Part shown: positions 41,871 to 61,924 of the stretch, piece by piece | Layout of the letters: each line of letters opens with the position of its first letter | Position numbering within the stretch: position 1 is the stretch's first letter | Assembly (NCBI RefSeq): GCF_044324875.1 | Contig: NZ_CP172185.1 | DNA: 64,000 bases | Direction: 5' to 3' (one strand) | From: Escherichia coli | GTDB lineage: Bacteria > Pseudomonadota > Gammaproteobacteria > Enterobacterales > Enterobacteriaceae | Made by a program: the position numbers and the translations under genes | Notes under the pieces: model-generated | The model's input: the letters and a program-made list of their open reading frames with translations, nothing else | Databases searched by the model: none | Told to the model about the DNA's origin: nothing

Positions 41871-43043
41871 AAAATTTCCTATTTAAAGGTCAGGTGTTAA
41901 TGCTGACATGCGATTTTGAGACGTATAAATAGTCCTTGTCTATTATATTCTTATCAATTTTATTTTCAATGTTTTTATCTTCTTTTTATACACTCTTAAA
42001 AAGAACCGATTTTATTACCTGAGCATGTAATGTAAAAGTATATGTGTGATGATTAAAGTTTTTATCCTTATTTTTCCTGTAAGGACGAGCTTTCCGTGGT
42101 TGCTGTTCTCGTATGTATGCGGGGTATTACTTTCACTAATGGTTAAAATTCTTTCCTTCCGGTTAAAGCATTCATGTGTTTGTATTTTTCTTTGCTATTT
42201 GTTTTTTAGTACAGAATTTAATTAGTGTGGTTGTGATTTTTGTTGATATCACCACGCGCATTTTATATGAAATAGCCACATAACTTTCAACAAAATATAA
42301 AAATAAAATTATGCTATAGTAAACAACAGATTTTTATGTTTATGAAAGATGACCACTTTTTTAATTTGACTGAATTTTTTAAGATGCTTTTGAGTTGTGA
42401 AATATATTTTTCTTTATTGCTTTTTGGAATGTTGACGGGGCGTAGTTATGATTAATATAACAGAAGTTTCAGGAACGCTTTTTTCTTTTAAATGCCTGCG
42501 CATGACTTGTTCAATAATGTGTTTTCATCATATTTTTTTGGCATCAATACAATAATTAAAGATATAACGTTAAAATATTATTTATTGGCTTTTCCTGATG
42601 GAGTAAAAACAAATGTAACAACTAACTGCATGATAAATAAGTAGAATGGTCAGTATCATGTATATTATTTGGGTATAAGTGGTATTTGTAAAGAATCAGT
42701 TGTGTTACTCCGGAATATATCTCTTTGAGAGAGCAGAAGTGAAACAGATATTCTCTTGAAAGTATTGCATTATCGTTACCGTTTTTATATCAGAGGCTGA
42801 AAATACGTATTTTTATAAACAGGGTGGAGGCATTTTTGTGTTATGTATGGATTTTCAAACCGGGTGAATCATCCAGACAGGTAATAATATAATAAGAAAT
42901 GTTGCTGCCAGGCTAAAACAGGAACGTGTACTTCTGTGAAAATGTTGATGCGAAGCTACCATTATTTGGGGTAGGGTATCTTCGCTCATCAGATGATATT
43001 GAATATGGTCGCCTGAAATCAGAAATTAAAAAATACAAATGGT

Positions 43044-43070
43044 AGTTAACTCCCCACCAACCGCTGTGGT
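43044..43070 (-). terminator. perfect 11-bp stem / 5-nt loop hairpin downstream of the integrase gene
   Basis: CCCCACCAACC-GCTGT-GGTTGGTGGGG; T-rich sequence follows on the minus strand after a ~20-nt gap. Confidence 0.45.
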
Positions 43071-43087
43071 TGGTGGGGGGGGATGGC

Positions 43088-44281
43088 TTATTTCGTTTGT
43101 ACGTTTTTCTCCATAAGTGAATCAATGTAATCAGCGTACCACTGCATCATTTCACGACGTCCATCGAGATACAGGGCATGATTATAGGTACCCCTGATGG
43201 AGTTTTTATCCACATGCGCTAACTGCATTTCAATCCAGGCAGAATTAAAGCCCTGTTCGTGCAGAATTGTGCTCATTGTGTGACGAAAACCATGGCCGGT
43301 TGCTCTGCCATCGTAACCGATGCGTTTTAGTACCATATTGATGCTGGCTTCACTCATCGGTTTGTTAACATCGCAACGTCCGGGGAATATAAGGCGATAC
43401 TGCCCGGTAAAACGATGCAATTCCTGCAGCAGTGAAATGGCCTGGCGTGACAGAGGAACAATATGATGCCTGCGCATTTTCATTCGCTCTTCAGGGATAT
43501 GCCAGAGTGCGTTGTCAGAATCAATTTCTGACCATTCGGCCAGCCGCAATTCAATCGTTCTGAGTCCGGTCAGCATCAGCAGGCTCGTCGCCATACGGGT
43601 GACAGGACTGCCATGATAGTCAGCGAGCTTCCGGAGAAAAACAGGAAGTTCATCCGCTCTCAGATGGGGAAAATGTGCGGTTTTTGGTGCCGCCAGCGTA
43701 CTGGTCAGTTCTGATGCAGGATTGACAGTGGCACGTCCTGTGGCAATGGCATAACGGAAAATCTGATTGCAGTATTGACGGACCTTGCGTAATTTTTCCA
43801 GAGAGCCACGTTTTTCAATACGACGCAAAATCTCCAGCATTTCCAGCGGGAGGATATCAGTCACGCTCCGGTTGCTCAGATACGGGAAAACGTCTTTATC
43901 CAGCGCTTCCAGTACGCTTCTGGCGTAACTGTCAGACCATGATAAAGATTTATGATGATGCCATTCCATTGCGAGAGCATGAAAGGTGTTGGTGACAGAG
44001 ATTTTCTGAGAGAGTTTTTCCCTTCGCTTCTTTTCACCGGGATCTCCACCCTCGGATATAATTTTTCGTGCATCGTCGCGTCTGGTTCTGGCTTCAGCAA
44101 GGGAGACGTCAGGATAGACGCCGAGGGACAGTTTTTTCTCCTTTCCTGCTGTTCTGTACTTAAGGCGCCAGTAGCGTGCTCCCGTGGTTTTTACCAGCAG
44201 ATATAAACCACGTTCATCAGAAAGTTTATAATCTTTGTCTTTAGGTCTTGCCGTTTCGACCTGTCTGGCTGTAAGTGCCAT
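43088..44281 (-). CDS. P4-type tyrosine integrase
   Basis: N-terminal LTARQVETARPKDKDYKLSDERGLYL arm-binding domain; catalytic R...HxxR...Y region (GHGFRHT, RGTYNHA). Confidence 0.85.
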   Translation of the reverse strand: MALTARQVETARPKDKDYKLSDERGLYLLVKTTGARYWRLKYRTAGKEKKLSLGVYPDVSLAEARTRRDDARKIISEGGDPGEKKRREKLSQKISVTNTFHALAMEWHHHKSLSWSDSYARSVLEALDKDVFPYLSNRSVTDILPLEMLEILRRIEKRGSLEKLRKVRQYCNQIFRYAIATGRATVNPASELTSTLAAPKTAHFPHLRADELPVFLRKLADYHGSPVTRMATSLLMLTGLRTIELRLAEWSEIDSDNALWHIPEERMKMRRHHIVPLSRQAISLLQELHRFTGQYRLIFPGRCDVNKPMSEASINMVLKRIGYDGRATGHGFRHTMSTILHEQGFNSAWIEMQLAHVDKNSIRGTYNHALYLDGRREMMQWYADYIDSLMEKNVQTK

Positions 44282-44457
44282 ATGGGGGCCCCTTAAACTG
44301 ACCGAACACAATGAGCCCCCAAATGTGCCCCCATTTAATGCTTGATTCAGGGGGTGTTCAATAGAATTCGGTGGAGTTCAAAATGTCCGGAACGATTATA
44401 AATCAGTGATTATACATGAATTTCGTGGAGTGCGGGGGATGTGTGTAGAAGTGAAGG

Positions 44458-44510
44458 TGGTGCCCTGACTCGGAATCGAACCAAGGAAACGGGGATTTTC
44501 AATCCCCGTG
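44458..44510 (-). tRNA. partial tRNA-Phe (3' 53 nt: anticodon stem-loop GAA through CCA); attachment-site repeat, not a complete gene
   Basis: minus strand CACGGGGATTGAAAATCCCCGTTTCCTTGGTTCGATTCCGAGTCAGGGCACCA; 3 mismatches to E. coli tRNA-Phe; no acceptor/D-arm 5' half upstream. Confidence 0.7.
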
Positions 44511-44558
44511 CCATAATTGGCTGTGTCAGTTGGTTACACACCATTGAGGTGTGTACTA

Positions 44559-45437
44559 ATGAAAATACTGCCCGTTGTCTCCACAAAAGGTGGCGAAGGT
44601 AAATCAACACAATCCGCAAACCTGGCTGGTTTTCTCGCCGATGCAGGTATCCGTACCCTGCTGATTGACGGAGATCATGCTCAGCCCACGGCAAGCAACA
44701 TCTTTCCGCTGACATATGAAGCGTCAGCCGGTCTTTTTGAGTTGCTGATGCGCACGGCTGACCTCAGTCATCCCGATAACATCATTTCCCGCACGGCTAT
44801 CGACGGACTCGATCTGATAGTCTCCAATGACCCTCATGAGCAGTTAAAAACTGCGATGCTTCACGCCCCGGATGGTCGTCTGCGCCTCCGGAATGTCCTG
44901 CAGCATCCGCTTTTTCTGAACAACTACGATGTCATTGTAGTTGATTCTCAGGGAGCACGTTCTGTCATGCTCGAAATGATTGTGCTGTCGGCCACTGATT
45001 CGGTTGTCGGGATGGTCAATCCGGTACTCCCTGATGTGCGCGAGTTTATTCGGGGCACTGTCAATGTTATGGAGAACCTGCTGCCTTACCGGGAGCTGGG
45101 GATACCCCTGCCGAAAGTACGCACGCTGGTTAACTGCATGGATTATACGGCACTGGCCAGGAAGACGCTGGATGAGCTGGCCGGAATTATTCAGACCGGT
45201 CGTTACAGCAGACAGTTACCTGAAGGTGCGGTTTCCCTTCTTTCCACACAGATTTACGACCTGAATATTTACAAGCAGGGGCATGCGGCTGGTCAACCCG
45301 TACATCGTCTCGAAAAAGAATCCACACGTCGCAGTGATTCCGCGCTTGTCACGATGCACAGCCTGGCCTGTGAACTCTTTCCTGAGTGGAAACAGGCGTT
45401 TGACGGGCTGCTGGCGAACGGGGGAATACGTCAGTGA
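44559..45437 (+). CDS. ParA/Soj-family partition ATPase (ICE left-end gene)
   Basis: deviant Walker A KGGEGKST at N-terminus. Confidence 0.8.
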   Translation: MKILPVVSTKGGEGKSTQSANLAGFLADAGIRTLLIDGDHAQPTASNIFPLTYEASAGLFELLMRTADLSHPDNIISRTAIDGLDLIVSNDPHEQLKTAMLHAPDGRLRLRNVLQHPLFLNNYDVIVVDSQGARSVMLEMIVLSATDSVVGMVNPVLPDVREFIRGTVNVMENLLPYRELGIPLPKVRTLVNCMDYTALARKTLDELAGIIQTGRYSRQLPEGAVSLLSTQIYDLNIYKQGHAAGQPVHRLEKESTRRSDSALVTMHSLACELFPEWKQAFDGLLANGGIRQ

Positions 45438-45504
45438 TTCAGGTTAAGCGAGAACCATGCAGCTCCGTTACCCTGGCTTATGGACGTTATCAATACCGGA
45501 CAAT

Positions 45505-46020
45505 ATGACGAGAAGGATTAACCCTATGAATAACAGCAGCAATACCACAACCCGTAATACGCTTTCACCCGTTGAGTCAGCCTGTCATGCCTTACTGGAT
45601 TTTATTGCCCGGGAAGTTTTTGAGAATAAAGCACCGGAAGAGGACGTCAGGGAACGTTGCAAAGTATTTACAGCGCTGCTTAACGAAGGATTTAAAGCCC
45701 TGCTTGATGAGGCAGGGCTGAATCTGTCAAACCTTCGTAAACAGTGTGAGGAACTGGAATCTCAGATAACCAGACTTGATTCTCAGTCCGATGCTATTTG
45801 TCGCAGAGGTGCTCAAATTGAACGCTTCATTGGTCACCATTTACCTTTTTTCGATTTGAACAAAGTTTTTGATACTGCCAGTCAGTCATGTGAACCAGCG
45901 CCTTCTCCGGCTCAGTCGGCTGTGTCCAGTAGTCAGCCCAGTAATCTGTCAGAGCAAGGGACATCTCAGCGGGTGTCATCTGTTCAACCGTTGCAGGGAG
46001 CCAGTGATGTTGATGAATAA
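45505..46020 (+). CDS. hypothetical ICE protein
   Basis: ORF with low-complexity Ser/Gln tail; start uncertain. Confidence 0.35.
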   Translation: MTRRINPMNNSSNTTTRNTLSPVESACHALLDFIAREVFENKAPEEDVRERCKVFTALLNEGFKALLDEAGLNLSNLRKQCEELESQITRLDSQSDAICRRGAQIERFIGHHLPFFDLNKVFDTASQSCEPAPSPAQSAVSSSQPSNLSEQGTSQRVSSVQPLQGASDVDE

Positions 46021-46378
46021 GAGCAAACTTAACGGCTTGTTGAACGCTGATACTGTTATCGTCCAGAAAAAACCAGCGGCGGCTGTTAATCAGCCAGTGT
46101 CCGAGCCAGCAAAGTCGGTAAGCGAGCTTCCGGTCAGCTCCGGGAAAGATTTCTGTTCCCTGGTCAAAGAAGGTTTTGCACCGTTCCACATCGTCGGTGC
46201 TCATACCTCCGACTTTCCAGTTTTCATAATATTTTGCCATGTTGCCATCCTCATCATGGTTGTTATCAATGCCGGACGGCAGTTGCTGATGATTTGTGTT
46301 CATAAGGTATTTCTCTTCGTAAACATGTTGATTATGAGCGCAAATATGCTGTACGTACCTTCTGACCGGGGTCGGCAA
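45827..46378 (-). CDS. hypothetical protein (antisense-overlapping candidate)
   Basis: 183-aa Trp-rich ORF overlapping the 3' end of 45505-46020; only one of the two is likely fully real. Confidence 0.3.
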   Translation of the reverse strand: MPTPVRRYVQHICAHNQHVYEEKYLMNTNHQQLPSGIDNNHDEDGNMAKYYENWKVGGMSTDDVERCKTFFDQGTEIFPGADRKLAYRLCWLGHWLINSRRWFFLDDNSISVQQAVKFALIHQHHWLPATVEQMTPAEMSLALTDYWADYWTQPTEPEKALVHMTDWQYQKLCSNRKKVNGDQ

Positions 46379-46511
46379 ACTTACCGGTCGGAAAATGTAC
46401 AGAAAGTTATGGGCCTTTTATGCCCTGCAACTGTTCGTCCGGCACCCGTTTTCGTTTTTTTGCATGGTGGGTTTGCTGTGAAACAGGCTCCGTTTGCCCG
46501 GGAGGTGGCGT

Positions 46512-47900
46512 ATGTCTGAACGCTATATTCCACGCTCCGTTGATGCAGAGCAGGCCGTGCTGGGCGGCCTGATGCTCGATAATGAACGCTGGGATGAGGT
46601 GGTACTGATGCTCCGGGGGGAGGATTTTTCTCTGGCCGCACACCGGGTGATATTCCGCACCATGTCAGAGCTGGCAACCAGCGGTCAGCCGTTCGACCTC
46701 ATCACGCTGAGTGAGCATATTGAGAAAACAAACAATATTGAGGCACTGGGTGGTTTCGCTTATCTGGCTGAACTCAGCAAAAATACGCCTTCTGCAGCCA
46801 ATATTATCGCTTATGCCCGTATTGTTGCTGAAAAGAGCATGCTGCGTCAGTTGCAGGAGACGGGGAATGCGCTGATTACGGATGTGGCCGCACCGGATGC
46901 GACACCACGCACTGTTCTTGAATCCGCTGAACGTCGGCTCTTTTCACTTTCACAGACTGGCATGTTGCATGAGCGATGTGAAGTCAGTCTCACCTCGGCT
47001 ATGGAGCTGGCGCTGCGTCAACTGGAAGAGGGACTGAACGCCGGCGGGATGACGGGCACGCCCACGGGATTTGATGAACTGGATGAGATGACCTGTGGTC
47101 TGCAGCCCGGCGACCTCATTCTTCTGGCTGCACGCCCGTCTATGGGGAAAACAGCGCTGGGCCTTACCTTCTGTCTTAATGCCCTGTGTAACCGGACCGA
47201 TGAAACGGTATTTCTTTTCAGTATCGAAATGTCCCGGGAGCAGCTGATTCTGCGTGTCCTGTCAATGCTCTCCAGGGTGGAGCTGACACGTCTTCGCAGC
47301 AGCATGATGGATGATGAAGAGTGGGCGAGAGTCACGGCAACCATGGGACGCTTCATGAATGAAGCGTCATTCATCGGAGATGGAAACCGCCTGATAATTG
47401 ATGACACCTCCTTCCAGACGCCGTCATCGCTGCGTGCCAGCGCCCGTCGTTATGTCCGTCTGTATGGCAGACCTTCCCTGATAATGGTTGATTACCTCCA
47501 GCTGATTCGTTCTCCGGACCAGGAGAACCGAACGCAGGAAATTGCGGAAATATCCCGCGCCCTTAAGGCGTTAGGTAAAGAGCTGGGATGCCCGGTACTG
47601 GCACTGTCTCAGCTTAACCGTCAGGTGGAGCAGCGGGCGGATAAGCGCCCCAATAACGGTGACCTGCGTGATTCCGGGGCGCTGGAGCAGGATGCTGACC
47701 TCATTATGTTTATTTACCGTGATGAGGTTTATAACTCTGGCACGCTGGATAAGGGCGTTGCTGAAATCATTGTGAGCAAACAGCGGCAGGGGCCAACCGG
47801 AACGATACGGGTGAACTTCGACGGCCGCTACACCCTGTTTTCACCGTTTGAACGTGGATGGAATTTTGACCGTGCCGGAGGAAATGCGTATGTCAATTAA
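46512..47900 (+). CDS. DnaB-like replicative helicase
   Basis: N-terminal DAEQAVLGGLMLDNERW, Walker A GKTALGLTF, RecA-like C-terminal domain. Confidence 0.8.
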   Translation: MSERYIPRSVDAEQAVLGGLMLDNERWDEVVLMLRGEDFSLAAHRVIFRTMSELATSGQPFDLITLSEHIEKTNNIEALGGFAYLAELSKNTPSAANIIAYARIVAEKSMLRQLQETGNALITDVAAPDATPRTVLESAERRLFSLSQTGMLHERCEVSLTSAMELALRQLEEGLNAGGMTGTPTGFDELDEMTCGLQPGDLILLAARPSMGKTALGLTFCLNALCNRTDETVFLFSIEMSREQLILRVLSMLSRVELTRLRSSMMDDEEWARVTATMGRFMNEASFIGDGNRLIIDDTSFQTPSSLRASARRYVRLYGRPSLIMVDYLQLIRSPDQENRTQEIAEISRALKALGKELGCPVLALSQLNRQVEQRADKRPNNGDLRDSGALEQDADLIMFIYRDEVYNSGTLDKGVAEIIVSKQRQGPTGTIRVNFDGRYTLFSPFERGWNFDRAGGNAYVN

Positions 47901-49539
47901 ACGAAATCATTCCGTTGATCTGGGAGCTGCCATCATGCAACCGGGCCGTCAGACCAGCACGACGGGTAACGTGGTGGCGCTGGGGGAAACACCGATGATT
48001 CTGACGCTGGATCAACTGCGCCCCAACCCGGATAACCCGAGGACCACGCGTAATCCCCGGTACGACGATATTAAAAGTTCAATTTTCTCCCGTGGACTGG
48101 ATACGGTGCCCAAAGTCACCCGGATACCTGAGAGTGAGCCGGATATCTATATTTTCAGCGATGGTGGTAACACGCGATATCAGATCCTGAAAGAGCTGTG
48201 GGAGGAGACCGGCGATCAGCGTTTCTATCGTATTCATGTGCTTTTCAAGCCATGGCCGGGACGGCTTCAGTGCGTCATTGGTCACCTGGCTGAGAATGAA
48301 GTCAGGGGCGAACTGACGTTTATTGAAAAGGCCCGGGGTATCCATAACGCCCGGATGATTTATGAGGAGTCGATGCAGCGAACCGTGACGATCAGGGAAC
48401 TGGCGTCACTGCTGACGGATGAAGGACTTCCGGTAAGCCACTCATCTGTCAGCAGGATGGAGCATACTCTGAAATATCTGTATCCGTGGATCCCCGATCT
48501 TCTGGAATCAGGATTAGGAAGACCGCAGATCAATTCACTGTTGTCTCTCCGGCAGGATGCGGAACGCATCTGGGGACAGTTTGCGGTGGCAACAGAGAAC
48601 GGGGCGGATTTTGACCGCGTGTTTGGTGAATGCTGCAGCAAATTCAATTCACCGGAGCTCTGGTCACTGGAGATGTTCCGGGATGAGCTGATTGGTGATC
48701 TGCTGAAAGCGTTACCACATCCGGTGCTGGATTATGACCGCTGGTTGCTTGAACTGGATCCGCGGGAGCGTAACCGACGTCACCATTTTGGCGAACCTGA
48801 GCCGGTGCTCATTCCCGCAGACAGTGATGCGATGCCAGAGCCTGCGACTGACGGTGTGTCGGCAGTGACGGCGGAGAAGAACAGCGGAAGGGAGCAGTCT
48901 GTGATTTCCGCACCGGCTGACCATGACACAGTCATGAATACGGAGCAATCCCCGGCTGGAAAGGCGGAGAGTTCAGTTATCGAACAACGCGAAGAACGCC
49001 GTAGAAAGGAAGTCCAGCCGGATATGTATGGTGGTGAAGAAACATACAGCGGCGATTACGAAGAGGATGGCGATACCCGTGATGCTGCGGATCTGCCGGT
49101 AACGTCACCGGAAGAGGGGGCTCAGCAGAGCAGCGGTGAAATATTCAGTGAGCCGGTATTCAGTGTTGGTGAACTGGATGATATCGAATATCTGCAGAAT
49201 GAGGCATTTCACCTGGCATGGGAGCTGGCGTCACACACAGGCTGTGTCGATGAGCTGGCTATGGACAGGGAAAGCGAACTGTCTGCGGGATTCGGCGCGG
49301 CAGAGGCGAATTGTTCTCCGGTCATGGCATTTCTTGTCAGGCTGACCGGTGAGGAGGTTCTGCGGGTTAATCCGGTTTCTCTTGATGCACTGATGATTGG
49401 TGGCAGTACTGAAGAAGAGCCACCACTGCTGGATGATGAGCATGCCGGGAAGTTACTCCGTCTGCTTGGGGTGTTGCGTCGTCTGCGGGGGCTGCAGCGC
49501 CAGGTGGAAGAAGAGAACGTGGAGGGGCGTGATGAATAA
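47884..49539 (+). CDS. ParB-like nuclease-domain protein (ICE ParB family)
   Basis: ParB N-terminal-domain-like region (LRPNPDNPR) then long acidic C-terminal half. Confidence 0.6.
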   Translation: MRMSIKRNHSVDLGAAIMQPGRQTSTTGNVVALGETPMILTLDQLRPNPDNPRTTRNPRYDDIKSSIFSRGLDTVPKVTRIPESEPDIYIFSDGGNTRYQILKELWEETGDQRFYRIHVLFKPWPGRLQCVIGHLAENEVRGELTFIEKARGIHNARMIYEESMQRTVTIRELASLLTDEGLPVSHSSVSRMEHTLKYLYPWIPDLLESGLGRPQINSLLSLRQDAERIWGQFAVATENGADFDRVFGECCSKFNSPELWSLEMFRDELIGDLLKALPHPVLDYDRWLLELDPRERNRRHHFGEPEPVLIPADSDAMPEPATDGVSAVTAEKNSGREQSVISAPADHDTVMNTEQSPAGKAESSVIEQREERRRKEVQPDMYGGEETYSGDYEEDGDTRDAADLPVTSPEEGAQQSSGEIFSEPVFSVGELDDIEYLQNEAFHLAWELASHTGCVDELAMDRESELSAGFGAAEANCSPVMAFLVRLTGEEVLRVNPVSLDALMIGGSTEEEPPLLDDEHAGKLLRLLGVLRRLRGLQRQVEEENVEGRDE

Positions 49540-50263
49540 TGATGCAGCACGTCAGGAGCAACTGATTAAACGGATAAGAAAACTGCTGGCGCTGAGCCGG
49601 AATAACAGTAATCCACATGAGGCAGGTCAGGCTCTTTCCCGCGCACAGGCGCTGATGCGGAAGCATGGTATCACCGAACTGGATGCTGATATTTCGGTGA
49701 TAAAAACCTCATCATCAAAGGGAGCACCGTCAGAAGCGGAAAAAGTTCCGGTATGGATGGGGCGTCTTATGAATGTTGTTGCAGGGGCATTCGGATGCCA
49801 TACATACCTGGACTGGCGTATCACAACCGGAGGATACTGGCGGCGGATTGTCACATTTTATGGTTTTGGGGAGCGTCCGGTTGTGGCTGCGTATGCCTTT
49901 GATGTTCTCTGCCGGCAGATGCAAAAGGCGACAAAAGAGTATCTCTCAACCCAGAGCCGGAAATTAAAACACTCAACCCGTCGTGCAAGAGCTGCGATGT
50001 TTCGTGACGGCTGGGTTTATGGGGTGCGTGATGTGGTGGATGCATTCCGGCTCACGGAAGATGAGACGCGTGTAATGAATACGTGGCTGCAGAACCAGCA
50101 ATTTGAGGGAATGGTCGTCTTCCGGGAGGTAAAGGACTGCCATGGCGGTGACCATGCACGCTGGCAGGGATACAACGAGGGGAAAAAGGCAACGCTGAAT
50201 CACGGTGTTGGTTCCCGGGATCTGAGACCGGAAAGCCTGATATCGGGCGGAGGTGAGGTATGA
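49532..50263 (+). CDS. hypothetical ICE protein
   Basis: start overlaps parB-like stop; conserved ICE backbone position. Confidence 0.45.
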   Translation: MNNDAARQEQLIKRIRKLLALSRNNSNPHEAGQALSRAQALMRKHGITELDADISVIKTSSSKGAPSEAEKVPVWMGRLMNVVAGAFGCHTYLDWRITTGGYWRRIVTFYGFGERPVVAAYAFDVLCRQMQKATKEYLSTQSRKLKHSTRRARAAMFRDGWVYGVRDVVDAFRLTEDETRVMNTWLQNQQFEGMVVFREVKDCHGGDHARWQGYNEGKKATLNHGVGSRDLRPESLISGGGEV

Positions 50264-50838
50264 GTAACAACTTATCACAGGCCACCAACGGGCTGTTGAT
50301 GCAACTGGTGATGGATCTCAAGAGTGGCTATCTGCGGCGATGTGAAGCGCTGGGGCTTTCCCGGGAAGAAATGCAGATGCTGCAGGGGCTGAGCATTGAA
50401 GAAATTCACTATCTGTCAAATTCAGAAGTGTCGGTGCTGCGGCTGGATATTAACCACAACAATCTTGTGCGCATGTTGCAGCAGGCGCGGACTGAACAGA
50501 AACGTCTGCAGCGAATCGATCGCGCTCTGGCGCTGGGTGGGTCTATCGAACTCATGGCGTTTTATTTTGGTCTTTCCAGCGTGGATGTGGCTGCGCGGCG
50601 TCGTATCTCCGGTATTGATGTTCGTCCCGGAAGGGGGATCACCCTGAGTGACGATGAGAATTCTGAACTCTGGCGGTTGTGGCAGAAAGCCGGGATCAAT
50701 GATGTGGAGAGTGTGGATGGGCTGGATGTCATGATGCTTTGTGCTGAACAGATGAACATTCCACTGACGGCCATCTGGCATGCCGTCAGAGGGTGGCATA
50801 CAACCGGAAATCCGGATCAGGTAAGGAGTGCGTCATGA
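50260..50838 (+). CDS. pathogenicity-island replication protein, STY4526/YPO1902-like (assignment by gene order and recollection)
   Basis: 192-aa ORF translationally coupled to neighbours. Confidence 0.4.
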   Translation: MSNNLSQATNGLLMQLVMDLKSGYLRRCEALGLSREEMQMLQGLSIEEIHYLSNSEVSVLRLDINHNNLVRMLQQARTEQKRLQRIDRALALGGSIELMAFYFGLSSVDVAARRRISGIDVRPGRGITLSDDENSELWRLWQKAGINDVESVDGLDVMMLCAEQMNIPLTAIWHAVRGWHTTGNPDQVRSAS

Positions 50839-51083
50839 AGATGACAGAACTGGTTCCCGGAGTGCTGACAAGTCCGGGCGTCCCTCCCACCAGTCAGCGT
50901 AAGGCGGTTGAACTGGTCAATCGCTTCCGTCGTGGAGAGCGGAATTATCATGAACTGAAGGAAAGAGGATTTGGTTATTTCAAGATTGATGTTGGTCCTG
51001 ACTGGCGGTTACTGAGCCGGAATAAAGGGCTGACCTGGGCCCTGTTGAGTCATGAACGATACAACAACATGAGACTGAAGTGA
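50835..51083 (+). CDS. small hypothetical protein
   Basis: ATG 50835 preceded by AAGGAG. Confidence 0.4.
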   Translation: MKMTELVPGVLTSPGVPPTSQRKAVELVNRFRRGERNYHELKERGFGYFKIDVGPDWRLLSRNKGLTWALLSHERYNNMRLK

Positions 51084-51092
51084 GGTGGAAAG

Positions 51093-51350
51093 ATGAGTAA
51101 TGCAGCAAGACTCCAGCTGGGTTTTTCTCCGTTTTCAAAAACTATCGTGCTGGCAAAAATGCGTAATCTTGACGACGGAACCAGTCTTCGTGTCGGTAAT
51201 GATCCCGGTCGCGATGTAACCAATGAGGCGGCTCAGCTTGTCTGGCATCTGGTCATGGCAGAAGGTGGTGAAATTATGTGGGAAATGGACGATGGCTCCC
51301 GCATGGTGCTGAAGGCTGAAAGTCAGGAGGCAACCAGTGAGCAAGATTAA
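51093..51350 (+). CDS. small hypothetical protein
   Basis: 85-aa ORF. Confidence 0.35.
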   Translation: MSNAARLQLGFSPFSKTIVLAKMRNLDDGTSLRVGNDPGRDVTNEAAQLVWHLVMAEGGEIMWEMDDGSRMVLKAESQEATSEQD

Positions 51351-51945
51351 CTACCAGGCACTGCGTGAGGCGGCAGAGCAGGCAATGCATGACGACTGGG
51401 GATTTGACACGGATCTTTTCCATGAGCTGGTAACACCATCGATTGTGCAGGCACTGCTGGATGAACGGGAAGCCCAAAGCAAACACGTAGCTGAACTGGA
51501 GGCTAATTTATCGGCGATGACCGAAGACCACCAGAAAGCGACTGAGTCAATTAAGCAGGCTGATTCGGCTGTTAAGTTGGCACACGAGACGTTTTCGGCG
51601 CTGGCGGCGGAGAATGCAAAGCTGAAGAAGTTCTGCAAAGACGCTGCATTCGATGCCGATTACGAAGCAGAGTCAGGTATGGAGCGTGGTGGATTCAGTG
51701 ATGCGCTTAACGAAATCAAAATCACAGCCACCGACGCTTTCCTGGCTGAAGTACGGGCGCAGGGGGTGGATGCTGCTATAGACGCTGCAAAAAATCTGGT
51801 GGCTCAGGAATATGAGTATAAGGATTTCAAAGCGGCGCAGAGTGATTGCTGTATGTTTCCTGGTTCAGACCTGGTAGGGAAGGTTGAAATGACCGAGTGG
51901 TTAGTTGACTTTGCCGCAGAGCTTCGCAAAGGAGGCAACCAGTGA
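51337..51945 (+). CDS. hypothetical protein (N-terminal KINYQALREAAE module)
   Basis: shares N-terminal module with the next ORF. Confidence 0.45.
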   Translation: MSKINYQALREAAEQAMHDDWGFDTDLFHELVTPSIVQALLDEREAQSKHVAELEANLSAMTEDHQKATESIKQADSAVKLAHETFSALAAENAKLKKFCKDAAFDADYEAESGMERGGFSDALNEIKITATDAFLAEVRAQGVDAAIDAAKNLVAQEYEYKDFKAAQSDCCMFPGSDLVGKVEMTEWLVDFAAELRKGGNQ

Positions 51946-54203: not shown

Positions 54204-55469
54204 ATGGCGCTACCTGCAGAAAGCCTTATTGCGCATACGCTCAGAAAAATGAAGGCCAGCATGGCAGAGAAAGCCAGTCGTGAGGACGGGAGGATACGCA
54301 GTGGGCTGTTGTTTACCGGCAATGTTCACGATTCGTATCCCCGCAGGCTGTTGCTGGATACGCGCCTTTCTCCCCTTGATAAAACTGCGTGGATGATGAT
54401 TCGTCTGCATGCCCTGAATAATGAGGGCGCAGTATTTCCGACGTACGATGAACTGCAGTTACAACTGGCATCTCCCGGGCGCGGGAAGGCGTCCCGTGAA
54501 ACAGTGAGCCGGGTGCTGACAATGCTGCGGCTTACGGGCTGGCTGAGTCTGTGTAAGCGGGTCAGGGATGAAAAAGGGCGGGTCCGGGGGAATATTTACG
54601 CCCTGCATGATGAGCCACTGACCTGCTGTGATGCAGAAAAGTTTGACCCACGATACCTGGATATGGTTCTGGATACTGTGAGCAGGAGCCGGAACAAGAC
54701 AATCCGGCACACAGCCAGTGAAGTGCTCAGTGATATCAAAAATGAGCCCGGTATGCGGCATTACCACAGCCATATCACTCTGTTTGAATCGCGTATGGGG
54801 GCAGCACAGACACCTGGTCAGCTGGCGGCGCGTCAGCGGGTGAACCCGATGGTGAATGAAAACACAGGCAGAGAGAGTGGTTCGGATTCCGTACATACCC
54901 CTGCACCTGTCGTGCAGGTAAACGAACTCAGTGATCCATTAATCGAACTCAGTGAAAAACAGGAAATGAGCCCACTCAGTTCGGATTCCGTACTGCCTGA
55001 AAAATCAGCAACTTATTACTCGGTTCGGAAACCGAACAATTACGTACGTAATATCACACACAGTGTGATTAAAAATACGTACGTATTGCCTGAGTCGGTG
55101 AAATCGCAAATCAGCGCAGAAGACACGGACATGCTGACAAAACAACTGCAGGCGTTGCCGGAAGAACTGGCAGGTAGTGTGCTGAGCAGCCTGTTACAGA
55201 TGCTCAGCAAAAACACGCTCCAGAATCCGGTTGGCTGGATGCTGGCTGTGATGAAACTTGCGCGTGAGGGACGTTTTAATACGCCGGATATGTCCGTGCA
55301 TGAATCCCGGTCGCCAGCCCGTGCACCATATCAGCCTGTGTACAACCGTGATGAACGTGAACGTCGTCGCGGGAAAGTGGCGTCACCTGAAACGGTGAGC
55401 AACATTGTCGCAGAATTCCGGGCCAGCCTGAAACGTGCAAATGCTGCCCGTCTGGCGGCGCGTGTGTGA
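54204..55469 (+). CDS. ICE/pathogenicity-island replication initiator-like protein (STY4528-like)
   Basis: 421-aa ORF immediately followed by an iteron array. Confidence 0.5.
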   Translation: MALPAESLIAHTLRKMKASMAEKASREDGRIRSGLLFTGNVHDSYPRRLLLDTRLSPLDKTAWMMIRLHALNNEGAVFPTYDELQLQLASPGRGKASRETVSRVLTMLRLTGWLSLCKRVRDEKGRVRGNIYALHDEPLTCCDAEKFDPRYLDMVLDTVSRSRNKTIRHTASEVLSDIKNEPGMRHYHSHITLFESRMGAAQTPGQLAARQRVNPMVNENTGRESGSDSVHTPAPVVQVNELSDPLIELSEKQEMSPLSSDSVLPEKSATYYSVRKPNNYVRNITHSVIKNTYVLPESVKSQISAEDTDMLTKQLQALPEELAGSVLSSLLQMLSKNTLQNPVGWMLAVMKLAREGRFNTPDMSVHESRSPARAPYQPVYNRDERERRRGKVASPETVSNIVAEFRASLKRANAARLAARV

Positions 55470-55483
55470 TGGTTAAAAGTCAA

Positions 55484-55803
55484 TCTATGGCGCTACTGGC
55501 ACCATAGTACAAAAAATAAGCGATGGTGCCACTGGCACCATAGTACAAAAAATGAGCGATGGTGCCACTGGCACCACGGTATAAAAAATGAGCGATGGTG
55601 CCACTGGCACCACGGTATAAAAAATGAGCGATGGTGACGCTGGCACCATAGTACAAAAAATAAGCGATGGTGCCACTGGCACCACGGTACAAAAAATAAG
55701 CGATGGTGCCACTGGCACCATAGTACAAAAAATGAGCGATGGTGCCACTGGCACCATAGTACAAAAAATGAGCGATGGTGCCACTGGCACCATAGTATAA
55801 AAA
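55484..55803. repeat. iteron array: ~9 tandem 36-bp units each containing palindrome GGTGCC-ACT-GGCACC
   Basis: period 36 bp measured between successive GCGATGGTGCC starts (55520, 55556, 55592...). Confidence 0.85.
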
Positions 55804-55935
55804 CGAACGCAATTCATACGCTCAATCCCGTTAATTTTAAAAGGTTCAAATCTGTTTTCCTGTTGTTGTTAATCCGGTTCTTTCTGACGATCTCACACTC
55901 AACTGGTGTTATTTCTGGTACTGAGTGGAGGTCAT

Positions 55936-56616
55936 ATGACTGATGAGAAAAAGACTGAACCTGGCGTGTTAAAAAGCTCCCTGACAATTAATATTCACAC
56001 TTATTACGCTATTCGGTTGTGGAACGGTCGCAAGCCTGAGACTGGTGCTGATAAGTCGGAACGTCGGCGCAGGATCATTGGCATGCCCGGGGTTATTTCC
56101 CGTGCGGGTATCGCAACAAAAGATTCTGAGAACAATAATCCGTGGGCGGATGAATTTTTGTTCAGCCTTGAGGAAAAGCTGAATCACTCAAAGCAAAAGA
56201 TTAATGACCTGGTTGAGCAGTTAAATGATGTTTTACGGGATGTGCCAGGGGATATTTGTATTTCTGAAATATCATCAACCAGTCCAGTAAATATTGGTGT
56301 GCACAGTCGTTCACCTCTTGGTTACAAATGTGTATGGCTGCTTGTCGGGTACGATGAACTGGTGCTTAAAGCCTTTCAGGCTTTCCACTATGGACTGATT
56401 GCCCGATCACGTCGTGATGAAATACTTAATGCCGGAGGGCATGCTGTACGTCAGATTTGTGCTCTTGCCCAGGGATATAAAACTGTACCTGCAACGAGGG
56501 GTGATATTTCTTCTGGCTCACAAAAAGGAAAAGATGCGATCAGCCGCTATGGCATGCCTGATCCTGACATCCTTACCGGGAAGAAACGGTCCTCCTTTTC
56601 TGCACCGCTGAAATAA
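55936..56616 (+). CDS. conserved ICE protein (PFL_4669-like, putative)
   Basis: ORF immediately upstream of topB as in SPI-7/PFGI-1-type ICEs. Confidence 0.4.
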   Translation: MTDEKKTEPGVLKSSLTINIHTYYAIRLWNGRKPETGADKSERRRRIIGMPGVISRAGIATKDSENNNPWADEFLFSLEEKLNHSKQKINDLVEQLNDVLRDVPGDICISEISSTSPVNIGVHSRSPLGYKCVWLLVGYDELVLKAFQAFHYGLIARSRRDEILNAGGHAVRQICALAQGYKTVPATRGDISSGSQKGKDAISRYGMPDPDILTGKKRSSFSAPLK

Positions 56617-56628
56617 TCTGGTAACTCT

Positions 56629-58647
56629 ATGCGTCTCTATTTATGTGAAAAACCTTCACAGGCCGCTGATATAGCCAGAGTACTTGGGGCTGCCAGACGT
56701 GGTGATGGTGCGATTGAAGGTAAGGACTTTGTTGTGACCTGGGCCTTTGGTCACTTGCTGGAGCAGGCGCCACCGGAGGCGTATGGTGAACAGTTTGGCA
56801 GCCCCTGGAAAATTGACGTTTTGCCGGTCTTTCCTAAACAGTGGAAGATGGTGGTGAAGGATAATGTCGGGAAGCAGTTTAATGTGATCAGCCGCCTTCT
56901 CCGTAAGACTGATGAAGTGGTGATTGCCACTGACGCCGATCGTGAAGGCGAAATTATCGCAAGGGAACTGCTGGATTATTGTGGTTATACCGGCGTTGTG
57001 CGCCGTCTCTGGCTGTCCGCACTGGATGAGAGCAGTATCAGGGAGGCGCTGGACAGAATACTGCCCGGAGAGGAGACCGAGAAGTTATATGAAGCCGGTA
57101 AGGGACGCAGCCGGGCTGACTGGCTGACGGGGATCAACCTGACGCGTCTGTATACCCTGAAAGCCAGGGGGTGTGGTGTGTCCGGCGTCCTCTCTGTTGG
57201 CAGGGTGCAGACGCCCACGCTTGCGATGGTGGTCAGACGGGACGCGGAAATAAAAAATTTTATTCCGGTACCTTACTGGCAACTGTATCTCTGGCTGGAG
57301 AAGGATAATGTGCGTTTTCGTACCACCTGGATTGCGGCAGCGCAGTACTGCGATACTGAAAAACGGTGTGTGAATGTGCAGGCGGCAACAGCCGTCCTGT
57401 CACAGTGTCGTCAGGCAGGTGTTGCTGTTGTCAGGGATGTCAGCAGCAGACGGGAGAAAAAGCAGCCTCCGCTGTGTTTTTCGCTCGGAACGTTGCAGGA
57501 GGTCTGTTCGCGCAAATTTGGCCTCGGAGCGCAGGCTGTTCTTGATATAGCCCAGTCGCTGTACGAAAAGCATAAGGCGACAACATATCCGCGTACAGAT
57601 TGCGGTTATCTGCCGGTATCAATGCACAAAGAAGTGCCTGACGTACTGGCGGCGCTGGAAAAAACCGATCCGGATATTGCCACGGAGCTGGCAAAACTCA
57701 GTCCTGATATTGTGTCGGGGATCTGGAACGACAGGAAGATCACCGCGCATCATGCGATAATCCCCACCCGTCAGCCGTTTAATATTGTGGCGCTGAGTGA
57801 TAATGAGCTTAAGGTGTACCGGTTAATTCGTCAGCATTATCTGGCTCAGTTTTTACCCATGCAGGAGTCGGATGTCACAGAGGCCACATTTCTTGTTGCG
57901 GGGCAGTTGTTCGGAACGCGGGGACGGGTGGAGGTTGTCAGGGGATGGCGTGCGCTTTTTGTGTCAGATTCGGCGGGAGAGGAAGAGGATGTTGCAGACG
58001 ATGAGCAGGCGATGCCCCTTCCCGTACTGGCAAAAGGTGATGAATGTCGTCCTGCTGAAGCTGAACTCAAAGAGATGCAGACCACGCCACCACGTCATTA
58101 TACGGAAGGCACGCTGATTGCGGCGATGAAAAATGCTGCGGGTATGGTGAGTGATCCGGCACTGAAAAAAGTGTTACGCGAAAATGCGGGGCTGGGTACT
58201 GAAGCGACCCGCGCAGAAATACTGGAAACGTTGTTCACCCGCAAATATATCGAGAAGCAGGGTAAGCATATCCGTGCCACGCAACTGGGGGCGGAGCTGA
58301 TAGCGGGATTGCCGGAGGCGCTGACCAGTCCGGGAACAACGGCGCTGTGGGAACAGGCTCTGGATGATATTGCACAGGGTAAACTGTCACTGTCGTCATT
58401 TATGGAGAAGCAGAAACAGTGGCTTAACCACCTGGTGGCCGGTGCAAGGCAGCAGCCACTGCAGATCACGGCACCGGTTACGCCTGCATGCCCTCTTTGC
58501 AGGGGAAGAATGCGGAAGGTGAAGATGAAAAGCGGGAAAGGGGAATTCTGGAGTTGTCAGCGTTATCCGGAGTGTAAGGGAGTGATTTCAGAGCAGAAAC
58601 CGACATCCGGGAAACGGGGCGGCAGAAAAATTAAAAAGCGTGGATGA
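56629..58647 (+). CDS. topB: DNA topoisomerase III
   Basis: Toprim N-terminus (LYLCEKPSQA), catalytic Tyr region, C-terminal zinc ribbon CPLCRG...CQRYPEC. Confidence 0.85.
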   Translation: MRLYLCEKPSQAADIARVLGAARRGDGAIEGKDFVVTWAFGHLLEQAPPEAYGEQFGSPWKIDVLPVFPKQWKMVVKDNVGKQFNVISRLLRKTDEVVIATDADREGEIIARELLDYCGYTGVVRRLWLSALDESSIREALDRILPGEETEKLYEAGKGRSRADWLTGINLTRLYTLKARGCGVSGVLSVGRVQTPTLAMVVRRDAEIKNFIPVPYWQLYLWLEKDNVRFRTTWIAAAQYCDTEKRCVNVQAATAVLSQCRQAGVAVVRDVSSRREKKQPPLCFSLGTLQEVCSRKFGLGAQAVLDIAQSLYEKHKATTYPRTDCGYLPVSMHKEVPDVLAALEKTDPDIATELAKLSPDIVSGIWNDRKITAHHAIIPTRQPFNIVALSDNELKVYRLIRQHYLAQFLPMQESDVTEATFLVAGQLFGTRGRVEVVRGWRALFVSDSAGEEEDVADDEQAMPLPVLAKGDECRPAEAELKEMQTTPPRHYTEGTLIAAMKNAAGMVSDPALKKVLRENAGLGTEATRAEILETLFTRKYIEKQGKHIRATQLGAELIAGLPEALTSPGTTALWEQALDDIAQGKLSLSSFMEKQKQWLNHLVAGARQQPLQITAPVTPACPLCRGRMRKVKMKSGKGEFWSCQRYPECKGVISEQKPTSGKRGGRKIKKRG

Positions 58648-58847
58648 TGATTACATGCTTTTTTTTATTTGTTAAAGTGCATACGCTTTGATGCGTACCC
58701 TGCTGACCACAGTAAAGAGCGGGCAGCTCTTCGGTCCGGTGATCGGCTCTACACACCAGCTGGATCACAAGGCGCATAAACTCCGTGAAAACCGCGCCGG
58801 GAGAAATCCCCGGAGACTGATGAGATAAACTACAGGGCTGGTAACCC

Positions 58848-58880
58848 CGGGCACCGTTTTTACGGTGCCCTTTTTATTTT
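58848..58880 (+). terminator. Rho-independent terminator
   Basis: CGGGCACCG-TTTTTA-CGGTGCCC followed by TTTTTATTTT. Confidence 0.7.
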
Positions 58881-58927
58881 GGTATTGACTTTCTTTGTGT
58901 GAGCTTTAAATATGGCAGGGCTAACTT

Positions 58928-59110
58928 GTCGCTCCGGCGACCACCAATGTTCCATAGTGGCCTGTGAGGAACGCCTTCGGGTGGCCCATGTCGCTTCAGC
59001 GACCACCAATGTTCCATGTGGCCTGTGAGGAACGCCTTCGGGTGGCCCACGTCGCTCCGGCGACCACCAATGCTTCATCTGACCTGTGAGGAGCGCCTTC
59101 GGGTGGTCAG
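58928..59110. repeat. three tandem ~61-bp repeats
   Basis: GTCGCTCCGGCGACCACCAATGTTCCAT-GTGGCCTGTGAGGAACGCCTTCGGGTGGCCCA x3 with a few substitutions. Confidence 0.8.
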
Positions 59111-59357
59111 TTTTACACCTCCTGAGCCTGAAAGGAGCTGTGCGTACTGAAGGGATATATTCCCGGAAGTACGGGCAAATCTGCACACCTTTGAGAGCAG
59201 ATGTCACTGCGGTTTTCCGTGATGATGAAGGCTTTTTTTACTGCACAGACAGCCGGAAATTCAGCTGATTCCGGCATCCCCGACGGGAACTATCACTCCC
59301 GTCAGGGCTGGTGATGTTCTCCGTCATATCTTTTTTTCACTCCATGGAGAAATCATC

Positions 59358-59822
59358 ATGTCTGCAACTAACTCTACTTCTGCAAAAACTGAATACTTCA
59401 ACCTGACCATGAAAGGTCTTGGGTATCTCAGCAATGTACGTCAGGTTAACCATCAGAACGGTTCGTTCCTCAGCTGTGTGATTAACGCACTGAGTGGACC
59501 AACGGACAATCCGTCCTATACGCGTTTTGATGTTACGGTTGCCGGTAAAGAGGCGACCACCCTGATCTCCCGCTGCCAGAAAGCAGTGGATGAGGACCGC
59601 AAGGTACTGCTTGGTTTTACGTTAAGCAACCTTGCCACCGACATTTTCACCCTGAACAAGGGGGAGCATGCCGGTGAGCAACGCGTCAGCCTGAAAGCCC
59701 GCCTGATCAAGGTGGACTGGATAAAAATAGGCCAGGAGCAGGTCTATAAGGCTGAAAAAGCGGAGTCCCAGCCACCGAGCCATGGCACCACAAAACGTGA
59801 ATACGCAGAAGACTCCTTCTGA
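59358..59822 (+). CDS. conserved ICE protein (STY4534-like, putative)
   Basis: 154-aa ORF downstream of the 61-bp repeats. Confidence 0.4.
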   Translation: MSATNSTSAKTEYFNLTMKGLGYLSNVRQVNHQNGSFLSCVINALSGPTDNPSYTRFDVTVAGKEATTLISRCQKAVDEDRKVLLGFTLSNLATDIFTLNKGEHAGEQRVSLKARLIKVDWIKIGQEQVYKAEKAESQPPSHGTTKREYAEDSF

Positions 59823-59921
59823 TCGCGTATTTTTCTCACTGCCTCCCTGATAAAGAAAACAGACCACCATCAGGGAGGTCTGTTTTCTTATTGTGTTTAC
59901 TGAACTTTAAGGAAACAAATT

Positions 59922-60125
59922 ATGACTTCTACAAACGGTATTCTCGCAGCTGCGGCAGGTTATACATTACCTCTGGAAATACTCAAAAGTGGGCGCGGAT
60001 ATTATATTGGCACTCAGTGTTGTGAGGGGCCGGTATCCCGTGAATCAGAAGAGTATTTCAAAAAATATGAGCAGGCTGAGCGGGCGCTGAAAAATGGCAC
60101 CTGGACACAACGTCATGCCTGGTAA
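59922..60125 (+). CDS. small hypothetical protein
   Basis: 67-aa ORF with good spacing to ssb. Confidence 0.35.
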   Translation: MTSTNGILAAAAGYTLPLEILKSGRGYYIGTQCCEGPVSRESEEYFKKYEQAERALKNGTWTQRHAW

Positions 60126-60137
60126 TGAGGAGGTGCT

Positions 60138-60695
60138 ATGGCTTCACGTGGCGTAAACAAAGTTATCCTGATAGGACATCTGGGGCAGGATCCGGATATC
60201 CGGTATTTCCCCAATGGCGGTGGCGTTGTGGCGAATCTGTCACTGGCGACCAGCGACACCTGGCGGGATAAACAGAGCGGTGAAATGAAGGAAGTCACTG
60301 AATGGCACCGCGTTGTTCTCTATGGAAAACTGGCTGAAGTTGCCTGCGAGTACCTGCATAAGGGGTCGCAGGTGTATATAGAAGGCCAGCTTAAAACCCG
60401 TAAATGGTTTGACCAGCAGAATGGTGTGGACCGTTATTCAACTGAGGTTGTTGTGGGCGTGAATGGTGTCATGCAGATGCTGGGTTCATCGCGTCAGCAG
60501 GGCGCTTCCGGTAATGGTGCTTCAGCACCGGCACAAGGGGGCCAGGGACAGCCGCCGAAGACGACCGGACAGACTGGTCGTGCTACCCGGACAACTTCAA
60601 CAGGTAATGGTGCTCCACCTGTGGACTTTGACGATGATATCCCCTTTATGGGGATCGGGTATGGCATGGAACGGCGAATTATTCATGCCATGTAA
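60138..60695 (+). CDS. ssb: single-stranded DNA-binding protein with 15-aa extension past the canonical DDDIPF tail
   Basis: OB-fold N-terminus, Gly/Gln-rich linker, DFDDDIPF followed by [15 protein letters not shown]. Confidence 0.8.
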
Positions 60696-60741
60696 TATTA
60701 ACCATGGGGCGATACGCCCCACTTTTTTATCCGGAGGTTAC

Positions 60742-61734: not shown

Positions 61735-61924
61735 CCTCACATCGTAATGATGTGGCAGAGCGCGACTGATGCGTCAGAATGCGTGATGCCCTGTGAACAC
61801 AGCGCCTGCCATTGTGCAGGCGTTTTTTTTGTCAACCGGAAATCAGTTGTTCATTGAGCCTCCCCTCACTTCTTCTGCAAATTGACCTCTGACTTTATCA
61901 CTTCACTGCAGAGGTAATTCCCTG

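Follow-up and report, generated by a model that had tools for sequence, protein, structure and literature searches.

A displaced tRNA-Phe fragment at the probable junction of an ICEEc2-like element and a P4-integrase leoCBA island in Escherichia coli

Organization of the junction

Here we describe a stretch of 64,000 nucleotides (nt) of Escherichia coli DNA (NCBI RefSeq assembly GCF_044324875.1, contig NZ_CP172185.1; hereafter the window), in which the 3' part of a phenylalanine tRNA (tRNA-Phe) gene lies between the P4-type integrase gene (int) of a genomic island carrying leoCBA and the parA gene at one end of an ICE (integrative and conjugative element). For comparison we used E. coli CM2 (NZ_CP158308.1), which is ~100% identical to the window at positions 33432 to ~43200 and ~44500 to 51378, and the ten places (L008-L017) that were obtained when the exact 397-amino-acid integrase protein of the window was looked up in public assemblies. 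The features of the junction, from left to right, are as follows.

43088-44281, minus strand: intact P4/IntS-type tyrosine integrase of 397 amino acids, the 'intP4' of GI-pheV/pheU (Pfam, NCBIfam and identity to phage integrases)
44282-44457, minus strand: island-side spacer from the tRNA 3' end to the int start codon, identical in the ICE-free L008-L011, L015 and L016 and the ICE-bearing L012-L014 and L017
44458-44507, minus strand: tRNA-Phe 3' part (nt 27-76), displaced and carrying G46T (44488) and C68A (44466), from the match to K-12 pheV
44486-44507, minus strand: interval that has to hold the site of ICE strand exchange and, with it, the ICE's physical end, tRNA nt 27-48 (anticodon stem-loop and variable loop), from T-stem comparison
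44508-44558, plus strand: terminal ICE DNA (attP arm, parA side) with the D-arm-like AGCCAATTATGGCA, identical in CM2, L013, L014 and L017 and unrelated to the tRNA 5' half
44559-45437, plus strand: ParA/Soj-type ATPase, the first ICE gene (NCBIfam ParA/MinD-type matches)

The integrase contains the Pfam domains Arm-DNA-bind_3 (PF13356, 1e-26), Phage_int_M (PF22022, 9e-29) and Phage_integrase (PF00589, 8e-25), matches NCBIfam PRK09692 with 303 bits, and is 44-46% identical to the IntS-type integrases of phages Sf6 and HK620 over 97-98% of its length. This domain set in an intact reading frame, directly 3' of the tRNA sequence and in the same orientation, is that of a P4/IntS-type arm-domain integrase, as an initial annotation made from the sequence had called it. 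The spacer between the gene and the tRNA 3' end presumably holds the int promoter and the arm region.

The displaced tRNA-Phe fragment

The minus-strand sequence of 44458-44507 is GGGGATTGAAAATCCCCGTTTCCTTGGTTCGATTCCGAGTCAGGGCACCA, and its two mismatches to nt 27-76 of E. coli K-12 pheV are the only ones in the block. The window holds a single copy of the 50-mer, where 100 shuffles give an expectation of zero; the segment is real and no chance match. The bases 5' of nt 27 in the fragment context (...CACAGCCAATTATGGCAC) are unrelated to the 5' half of tRNA-Phe or to pheV. The initial annotation had given the segment as 53 nt (44458-44510) with three mismatches; the identification as the 3' part of tRNA-Phe on the minus strand stands, and the length and count become 50 nt and two mismatches, because the alignment had been stretched by three bases, to 44510, into ICE DNA. 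Its statement that only the 3' part is present is borne out: ARAGORN finds no tRNA gene in the whole window, an Rfam scan of the window at the gathering threshold finds no tRNA, and the 5' half is absent. A complete, tool-detectable cloverleaf with acceptor stem and D-arm, as expected of a functional tRNA-Phe gene, is thus not found at 44458-44507.

The T-stem of the fragment is the canonical CTTGG/CCGAG of E. coli, which identifies the fragment as the original chromosomal half of the tRNA gene. The fragment acts as the attR site of the ICE, and its last 19-23 nt form the attL core of the P4-integrase island.

ICE-free and ICE-bearing loci

The ten places with the exact integrase protein fall into three sets.

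L009, L010, L011, L015 and L016: ICE-free, pheV; intact canonical tRNA-Phe upstream of int (ARAGORN)
L008: ICE-free, pheU; intact canonical tRNA-Phe upstream of int (ARAGORN)
L012, L013, L014 and L017: ICE-bearing; 50-nt fragment and ICE parA upstream of int, no tRNA

The ICE-free loci are flanked by the yqgA-speC side at pheV (n=5) and by the dsbD-yjdC side at pheU (n=1), and in them the integrase gene, a DUF3944 gene and leoA follow directly after tRNA-Phe. In all six, an identical integrase gene begins 176 nt past the intact tRNA-Phe, a spacing that the window keeps after the fragment. The island side of the ICE-free loci is 99.92-99.96% identical to that of the window (99.92-100% across all ten); over 13.2 kb, junction included, L014 matches the window at 100%. 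At least 11 complete E. coli genomes share the junction of int, fragment and parA.

The P4-type integrase is part of the island rather than of the ICE, because it is found without the ICE and because the same ICE adjoins other islands or none. In APEC 102026 and E24377A the same ICE end adjoins a raffinose (raf) island with a different integrase allele, and in Br_112_kylling it adjoins no island. In this last genome (L003, ~7760-8060), the fragment at the parA end carries a one-nucleotide deletion, CCGG-CACCA, which is listed in the literature for the distal repeat of GI-pheV; the native pheV terminator follows directly, with an IS110 remnant and the kps genes behind it. This array seems to have lost the island, or never to have had it.

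The same integrase-leoCBA island, with 99.9% identity, is thus located at pheU in one assembly (L008) and at pheV in five, and has either moved between the two genes or been acquired twice. In our collection of complete E. coli genomes, no integrase allele exceeds 91% DNA identity to that of the window, which is common in draft assemblies; the closest (90.7%) adjoins ynjA, without a tRNA, and is uninformative for the locus.

The far end of the ICE in near-identical genomes

In CM2 the ICE can be followed over its whole length. It runs for ~86 kb from parA, through type IV secretion system (T4SS) genes, traD and type IVB pilus genes, to UvrD, TraI and an integrase of its own, a 366-amino-acid XerC/D-like tyrosine recombinase that abuts an intact pheV beside yqgA-speC. 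The complete order is yqgA, pheV, XerC/D-like integrase, TraI (PFGI-1/MobH class), UvrD, pil and T4SS genes, parA, the 50-nt fragment, the P4 integrase and the leoA island. The XerC/D-like integrase, the TIGR03760 TraI, TraD and the T4SS genes of the TIGR0374x-5x models are carried by the CM2 ICE; in the source genome of the window they would lie beyond the window. The order UvrD-TraI-integrase-tRNA-Phe-yqgA-speC was found in all 10 further loci examined for the ICE integrase protein, for which the index of the public assembly collection lists 3,181 blocks.

The initial annotation had placed the ICE integrase and a second att copy beyond the window, and this is the arrangement seen in CM2. It had also proposed that the ICE entered a tRNA-Phe gene already holding the integrase island, and the six ICE-free and four ICE-bearing assemblies with an identical integrase support this proposal.

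The strand-exchange interval

The intact tRNA-Phe at the integrase end of the CM2 ICE (L006, 31850-31925) has the T-stem GGTGG/CCGCC instead of CTTGG/CCGAG, four changes that keep the pairing. The fragment at the parA end in CM2 keeps the canonical E. coli T-stem, and the same attL/attR pair is present in Br_112_kylling. The canonical form of tRNA-Phe, which is 94.9% identical to the CM2 version over 78 nt, occurs in 5,425 of 5,426 complete E. coli genomes, and many further Gammaproteobacteria, such as Marinobacter, Alcanivorax, Xenorhabdus, Salinivibrio and Pantoea stewartii, have the variant 3' half as the native end of their tRNA-Phe. Because attL carries the foreign T-stem while attR stays canonical, the ICE brings its own tRNA 3' half; and the variant T-stem at attL, together with identity to attB from nt 27, places the exchange between nt 26 and nt 49, that is, within nt 27-48. 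Among ten further loci (L138-L147), all with an equal ICE-side flank, the T-stem at attL is the variant in three and canonical in seven. The ICE therefore circulates with two attP versions, and it can change the tRNA-Phe sequence of its host.

The two substitutions

G46T and C68A are common to the window, L014 and L017, and are absent from L013, which has an equal ICE and an equal integrase allele. In the ICE-free genomes the sequence is canonical and lies inside a working tRNA-Phe gene. The substitutions therefore postdate the displacement, since the L013 fragment is unmutated, those of L014, L017 and the window are mutated, and the ICE-free loci are canonical; they arose in one sublineage, in DNA that was no longer coding. 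The mismatches are thus later decay and not a deviation from the E. coli gene that came in with the ICE. No match to the mutated fragment came up when one genome per species was searched for the exact sequence.

C68A sits in the 19-23-nt att core of the island, and G46T inside the 22-nt exchange interval of the ICE. G46T could affect excision, although an effect of either substitution on excision is something that we infer.

When positions 43200-44500 of the window are compared with CM2 (L001, 20200-21500), the body of int and the spacer upstream of it are only ~85% identical (66-94% per 100 nt), with flanks of ~100%. This patch prompted us to consider a gene-conversion tract from a diverged donor as the source of the two mismatches. 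That source is ruled out, because the same integrase allele is found beside an intact tRNA-Phe of canonical sequence and, in L013, beside a fragment that is likewise canonical. Instead, the patch shows that the CM2 lineage and the window lineage have different integrase alleles, one of the two having had its allele replaced, and the mismatches are later point mutations.

Proposed history of the junction

The locus is very probably the attR junction of an ICEEc2-like ICE, of the SPI-7 / pKLC102-PAGI-2 / PFGI-1 family, in a tRNA-Phe gene (pheV or pheU) that already held the P4-integrase leoCBA island. The attP of the ICE would carry a copy of tRNA-Phe nt 27-76, and the XerC/D-like recombinase of the ICE, encoded at its far end beyond the window, would have exchanged attP with the tRNA gene within nt 27-48. 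The ICE copy of the 3' half would have completed the tRNA gene at attL, beside the ICE integrase. The chromosome's own 3' half, still joined to the int gene of the island, would have been shifted to the ParA end of the ICE, ~80-86 kb away. This displaced half is no longer part of a gene, and has gained G46T and C68A in the present lineage. The layout of the junction, the loci with and without the ICE, its far end in near-identical genomes and the exchange interval are seen in the sequences; we infer both the catalysis of this event by the ICE integrase and the completeness of the element in this genome.

Arrival of the island first and of the ICE second is the more parsimonious order, although it is not strictly proven. 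We favour it because the same island and integrase allele are joined to two ICE variants (that of L012, and that of L013, L014, L017 and the window), because the evolution of GI-pheV reportedly follows, for the most part, that of the core genome (PMC11537424), and because this type of ICE is transferable (PMC13127887).

The same final arrangement would result from the reverse order, in which the ICE arrived first and the P4-integrase island later entered the displaced 50-nt attR fragment. The attachment core of the island, the last 19-23 nt of tRNA-Phe (PMC11537424), is retained in the fragment, and the finding of the same island at pheU and pheV, 99.9% identical, suggests recent mobility. However, the two ICE variants with the same island would then require that the fragment was chosen over intact tRNA-Phe genes twice; moreover, it is the GI-pheV island that largely follows the core genome and the ICE family that is demonstrably transferable and has an integrase indexed in those 3,181 blocks. 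We regard the reverse order as improbable.

Several points weigh against the history that we prefer, with the island first and the ICE second. The possibly recent mobility of the island leaves the order of arrival unproven. What lies at the other end of the ICE, the integrase and the intact tRNA, is beyond the 64-kb window and is deduced for this genome from CM2 and other assemblies, and the window alone cannot tell whether its tRNA-Phe locus is pheV or pheU. The exchange interval rests on the genomes with a variant T-stem, seven of the ten further loci being canonical at attL. Finally, the excision and transfer of this copy of the ICE are putative.

The ICE and the leoCBA island may even form a working composite that moves the island, otherwise non-conjugative, in cis, a doubtful extension of the history above. 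Such movement could proceed by recombination of the intact tRNA-Phe, at the integrase end of the ICE, with the distal att repeat of the island, or by transfer of the high-frequency-recombination (Hfr)-like kind begun from the ICE. If this were true, it might explain the identical island at pheU and pheV, and the two substitutions in the internal att would favour movement of the array as one unit over separate excision.

Our first suspicion was that the order int-fragment-parA represented the attP junction of a circular or tandemly repeated ICE, in which the P4 integrase would be the ICE's own and the left 43 kb ICE cargo. The order of parA, tRNA 3' fragment and int is indeed that of a circularised tRNA-targeting element, and recurrence of the junction in complete genomes agrees with such a structure. 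However, the integrase and island occur without the ICE beside intact tRNA-Phe, the ICE's own integrase lies beside TraI at the opposite end in complete chromosomes (at pheV in CM2), the same ICE end abuts the raf island or no island, the fragment has the chromosomal and not the ICE-type T-stem, and no conjugation or ICE backbone genes were found left of int in an NCBIfam scan of the window. We rejected this reading, which is very improbable on these grounds.

Just as hard to credit is that the fragment and the adjoining D-arm-like ICE sequence form a functional tRNA-like or regulatory RNA. A permissive Rfam scan does give a local tRNA match of 21.1 bits, over model positions 9-63, which takes a D-arm-like hairpin from the adjoining DNA and so spans a pseudo-D-arm, the anticodon arm and the T-arm; RefSeq/PGAP, in addition, labels the equivalent fragment plus ICE-side DNA 'tRNA-Ser' or 'tRNA-OTHER' in APEC 102026 (L002, 13344-13421) and E24377A (L004, 9344-9422). 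However, the score is below the gathering score of 29 and the match lacks the acceptor stem; ARAGORN finds no tRNA here or at the equivalent fragments in L002, L004, L012-L014 and L017; and the upstream ICE sequence is wholly different between ICE variants. C68A would break the acceptor strand, and a sublineage tolerates this substitution as well as G46T, as expected of unconstrained DNA. The PGAP calls look like annotation artefacts of att scars.

Truncation of the tRNA by an unspecific event (deletion mediated by an insertion sequence (IS) or illegitimate recombination), with ICE genes adjacent by chance, might be thought of in so IS-rich a region and can be dismissed: the tRNA breaks at nt 27, or at nt 28 in E24377A, in junctions that are independent and involve different ICE variants, the repeat length fits the 49-52-bp repeats of the family (PMC4814525, PMC11278526), and no IS end lies at the junction.

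Gene content of the ICE side

The first gene in the 19.5 kb of ICE DNA in the window is that of ParA, which shares 100% identity with a CM2 gene bearing the annotation 'ParA family protein'. Its ribosome-binding site is overlapped by an inverted repeat of 8 bp (44535-44542 / 44548-44555), read directly from the sequence. The further ICE features, all on the plus strand and with NCBIfam scores in bits, are as follows.

46494-47900, plus strand: SPI-7-type DnaB helicase (NF040583, 684.6; cut-off 655)
47848-49539, plus strand: PFGI-1-class ParB (TIGR03764, 378; cut-off 143.75)
54204-62503, plus strand: ICE maintenance/replication block (NCBIfam above curated cut-offs, STAXI of Rfam, tandem array), made up of the following six genes and others
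54204-55469, plus strand: STY4528-family protein (387.3; cut-off 130)
55906-56616, plus strand: PFL_4669-family protein (234.3; cut-off 110.7)
56629-58647, plus strand: TopB (above curated cut-off)
59358-59822, plus strand: STY4534-family protein (197.9; cut-off 160)
60138-60695, plus strand: SSB (above curated cut-off)
61925-62503, plus strand: PilL (130.5; cut-off 64.15)

The order parA-dnaB-parB-topB-ssb-pilL given in the initial annotation was recovered gene for gene by NCBIfam matches, the family-specific models scoring above their curated cut-offs. DnaB, ParB, the STY4528, PFL_4669 and STY4534 proteins and PilL, all above the NCBIfam cut-offs, assign the element to the SPI-7 / pKLC102-PAGI-2 / PFGI-1 family. 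The tRNA-Phe repeats of ~49-52 bp and the soj/parA gene at the end distal to the integrase, which are also typical of the family, are seen here as a 50-nt repeat located 51 nt upstream of parA, the partner of which is seen in CM2.

An Rpn-family gene is also present in the block, listed between SSB and PilL, and near its 3' end the 12-nt unit AAGGCCGTGCTG is repeated ~7 times (61517-61603). In the interval that separates the STY4528-family replication gene from the PFL_4669-family gene, a 36-bp unit with the palindromic core ATGGTGCCACTGGCACCAT is repeated 8.8 times with 92% matches (55487-55803); CM2 has roughly 25 copies at the equivalent place. This resembles an array of iterons, or a centromere-like one, belonging to the ICE. 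At 58927-59233, after topB and before the STY4534-family gene, there are two STAXI RNA motifs side by side, which score 61.6 and 66.3 bits (gathering threshold 40.5).

The resident island

Two further features were recognized on the island side.

43052-43078, minus strand: perfect 11-bp inverted repeat CCCCACCAACC/GGTTGGTGGGG just beyond the int stop codon (repeat search)
1-43087, no strand assigned: mosaic resident island left of int (NCBIfam), with its far end beyond the window

The cargo of the island comprises IS3, IS66 and IS21 elements, lipase, Rpn and SitA-like proteins, phosphotransferase-system (PTS), kinase and aldolase genes, PepT-like and DppA-like proteins, an outer-membrane protein, the LeoC/B/A dynamin-like GTPases and the DUF3944 protein; the DUF3944 gene and leoCBA close these 43 kb on the int side. 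No second copy of the tRNA-Phe 3' repeat, which would be the distal att of the island, was found in the window at up to three mismatches; the far end of the island is outside the window or lost. An ALIL pseudoknot (1631-1747, 116 bits) is the frameshift signal of an IS3-family element, with the transposase reading frame following at 1673-2563.

The inverted repeat at 43052-43078, which is overlapped by a smaller hairpin picked up in a scan for terminator-like structures, is a candidate transcription terminator of int. The 1.2 kb from the DUF3944 gene to the int stop codon (41871-43087), which are unannotated in CM2, contain no open reading frame of 60 amino acids or more except one of 70 amino acids (42913-43125, minus strand) that overlaps the end of this stretch and the int stop codon. 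Between 41800 and 44700, 16 promoter-like matches were found, compared with 8.2 expected.

Relation to known elements

ICEEc2 is reportedly an element of the avian pathogenic E. coli strain BEN374, said to have been described by Roche et al. 2010, J Bacteriol 192:5026. The ICE of the window resembles it, to judge from descriptions in citing papers, as an E. coli ICE of the pKLC102/PAGI-2 family located downstream of tRNA-Phe and having a type IV pilus, although only the ParA-proximal 19.5 kb are visible in the window. ICEEc2 inserts at tRNA-Phe pheU or pheV in E. coli (PMC11537424, PMC13127887, PMC4458695). Many of the best matches to the ICE of the window are chicken isolates.

In HAI2 of Pectobacterium atrosepticum, soj and int are at opposite ends; the element is flanked by direct repeats of 49 bp and uses either of two tRNA-Phe genes (PMC4814525). 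SPI-7 of Salmonella Typhi and HAI2 share a layout, matched by the ICE here, in which topB and pilL lie within an element that has soj/parA and int at its two ends, and one of these tRNA-Phe genes is next to speC (PMC4814525). The likeness of the window to SPI-7 extends to single genes, which pass the dnaB_SPI-7_type, STY4528 and STY4534 family models. The window differs from both elements in host and cargo, in its repeat of 50 nt, in the two substitutions of its attR copy, and in that this copy abuts the integrase of another island.

GI-pheV is a mosaic, IS-rich island whose sole conserved gene is a P4-type integrase directly 3' of tRNA-Phe, with att repeats of 19-23 bp from the tRNA 3' end (PMC11537424). 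The island of the window is like it in its intP4-class integrase and its mosaic, IS-rich make-up, but adjoins a displaced fragment and not a tRNA gene.

Tandem arrays at such sites have been found in Proteus mirabilis AR379, in which ICEPm1, with 52-bp repeats, and ICEPm3 are in tandem at tRNA-PheU (PMC11278526), and elsewhere as ICESt1/CIME in Streptococcus thermophilus and as SXT/R391 arrays (references in PMC5812530). As in those systems, two integrative elements occupy one tRNA/att site with an internal att repeat between them. In contrast to them, the two integrases are unrelated (XerC/D-like and P4-type), the cores are nested (50 nt and 19-23 nt), and the intact tRNA, rather than the distal repeat, would have been where the ICE came in.

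The structure is therefore already known in kind, as an ICEEc2-like element in tandem with GI-pheV, and an identical sequence is already public. The locus leaves current understanding unchanged, and its value is that of a clean worked example. It presents the E. coli tRNA-Phe genes as stacking sites, at which a transmissible ICE lands before an older, immobile-looking island, and an internal tRNA fragment that marks the island boundary exactly and helps to delimit islands in annotation. It also shows that insertion of the ICE can rewrite the T-stem of the host tRNA-Phe to a foreign, base-pair-compensated version, and it places an ICE of a kind known for Hfr-like chromosome transfer beside leoCBA, a virulence-associated cargo.

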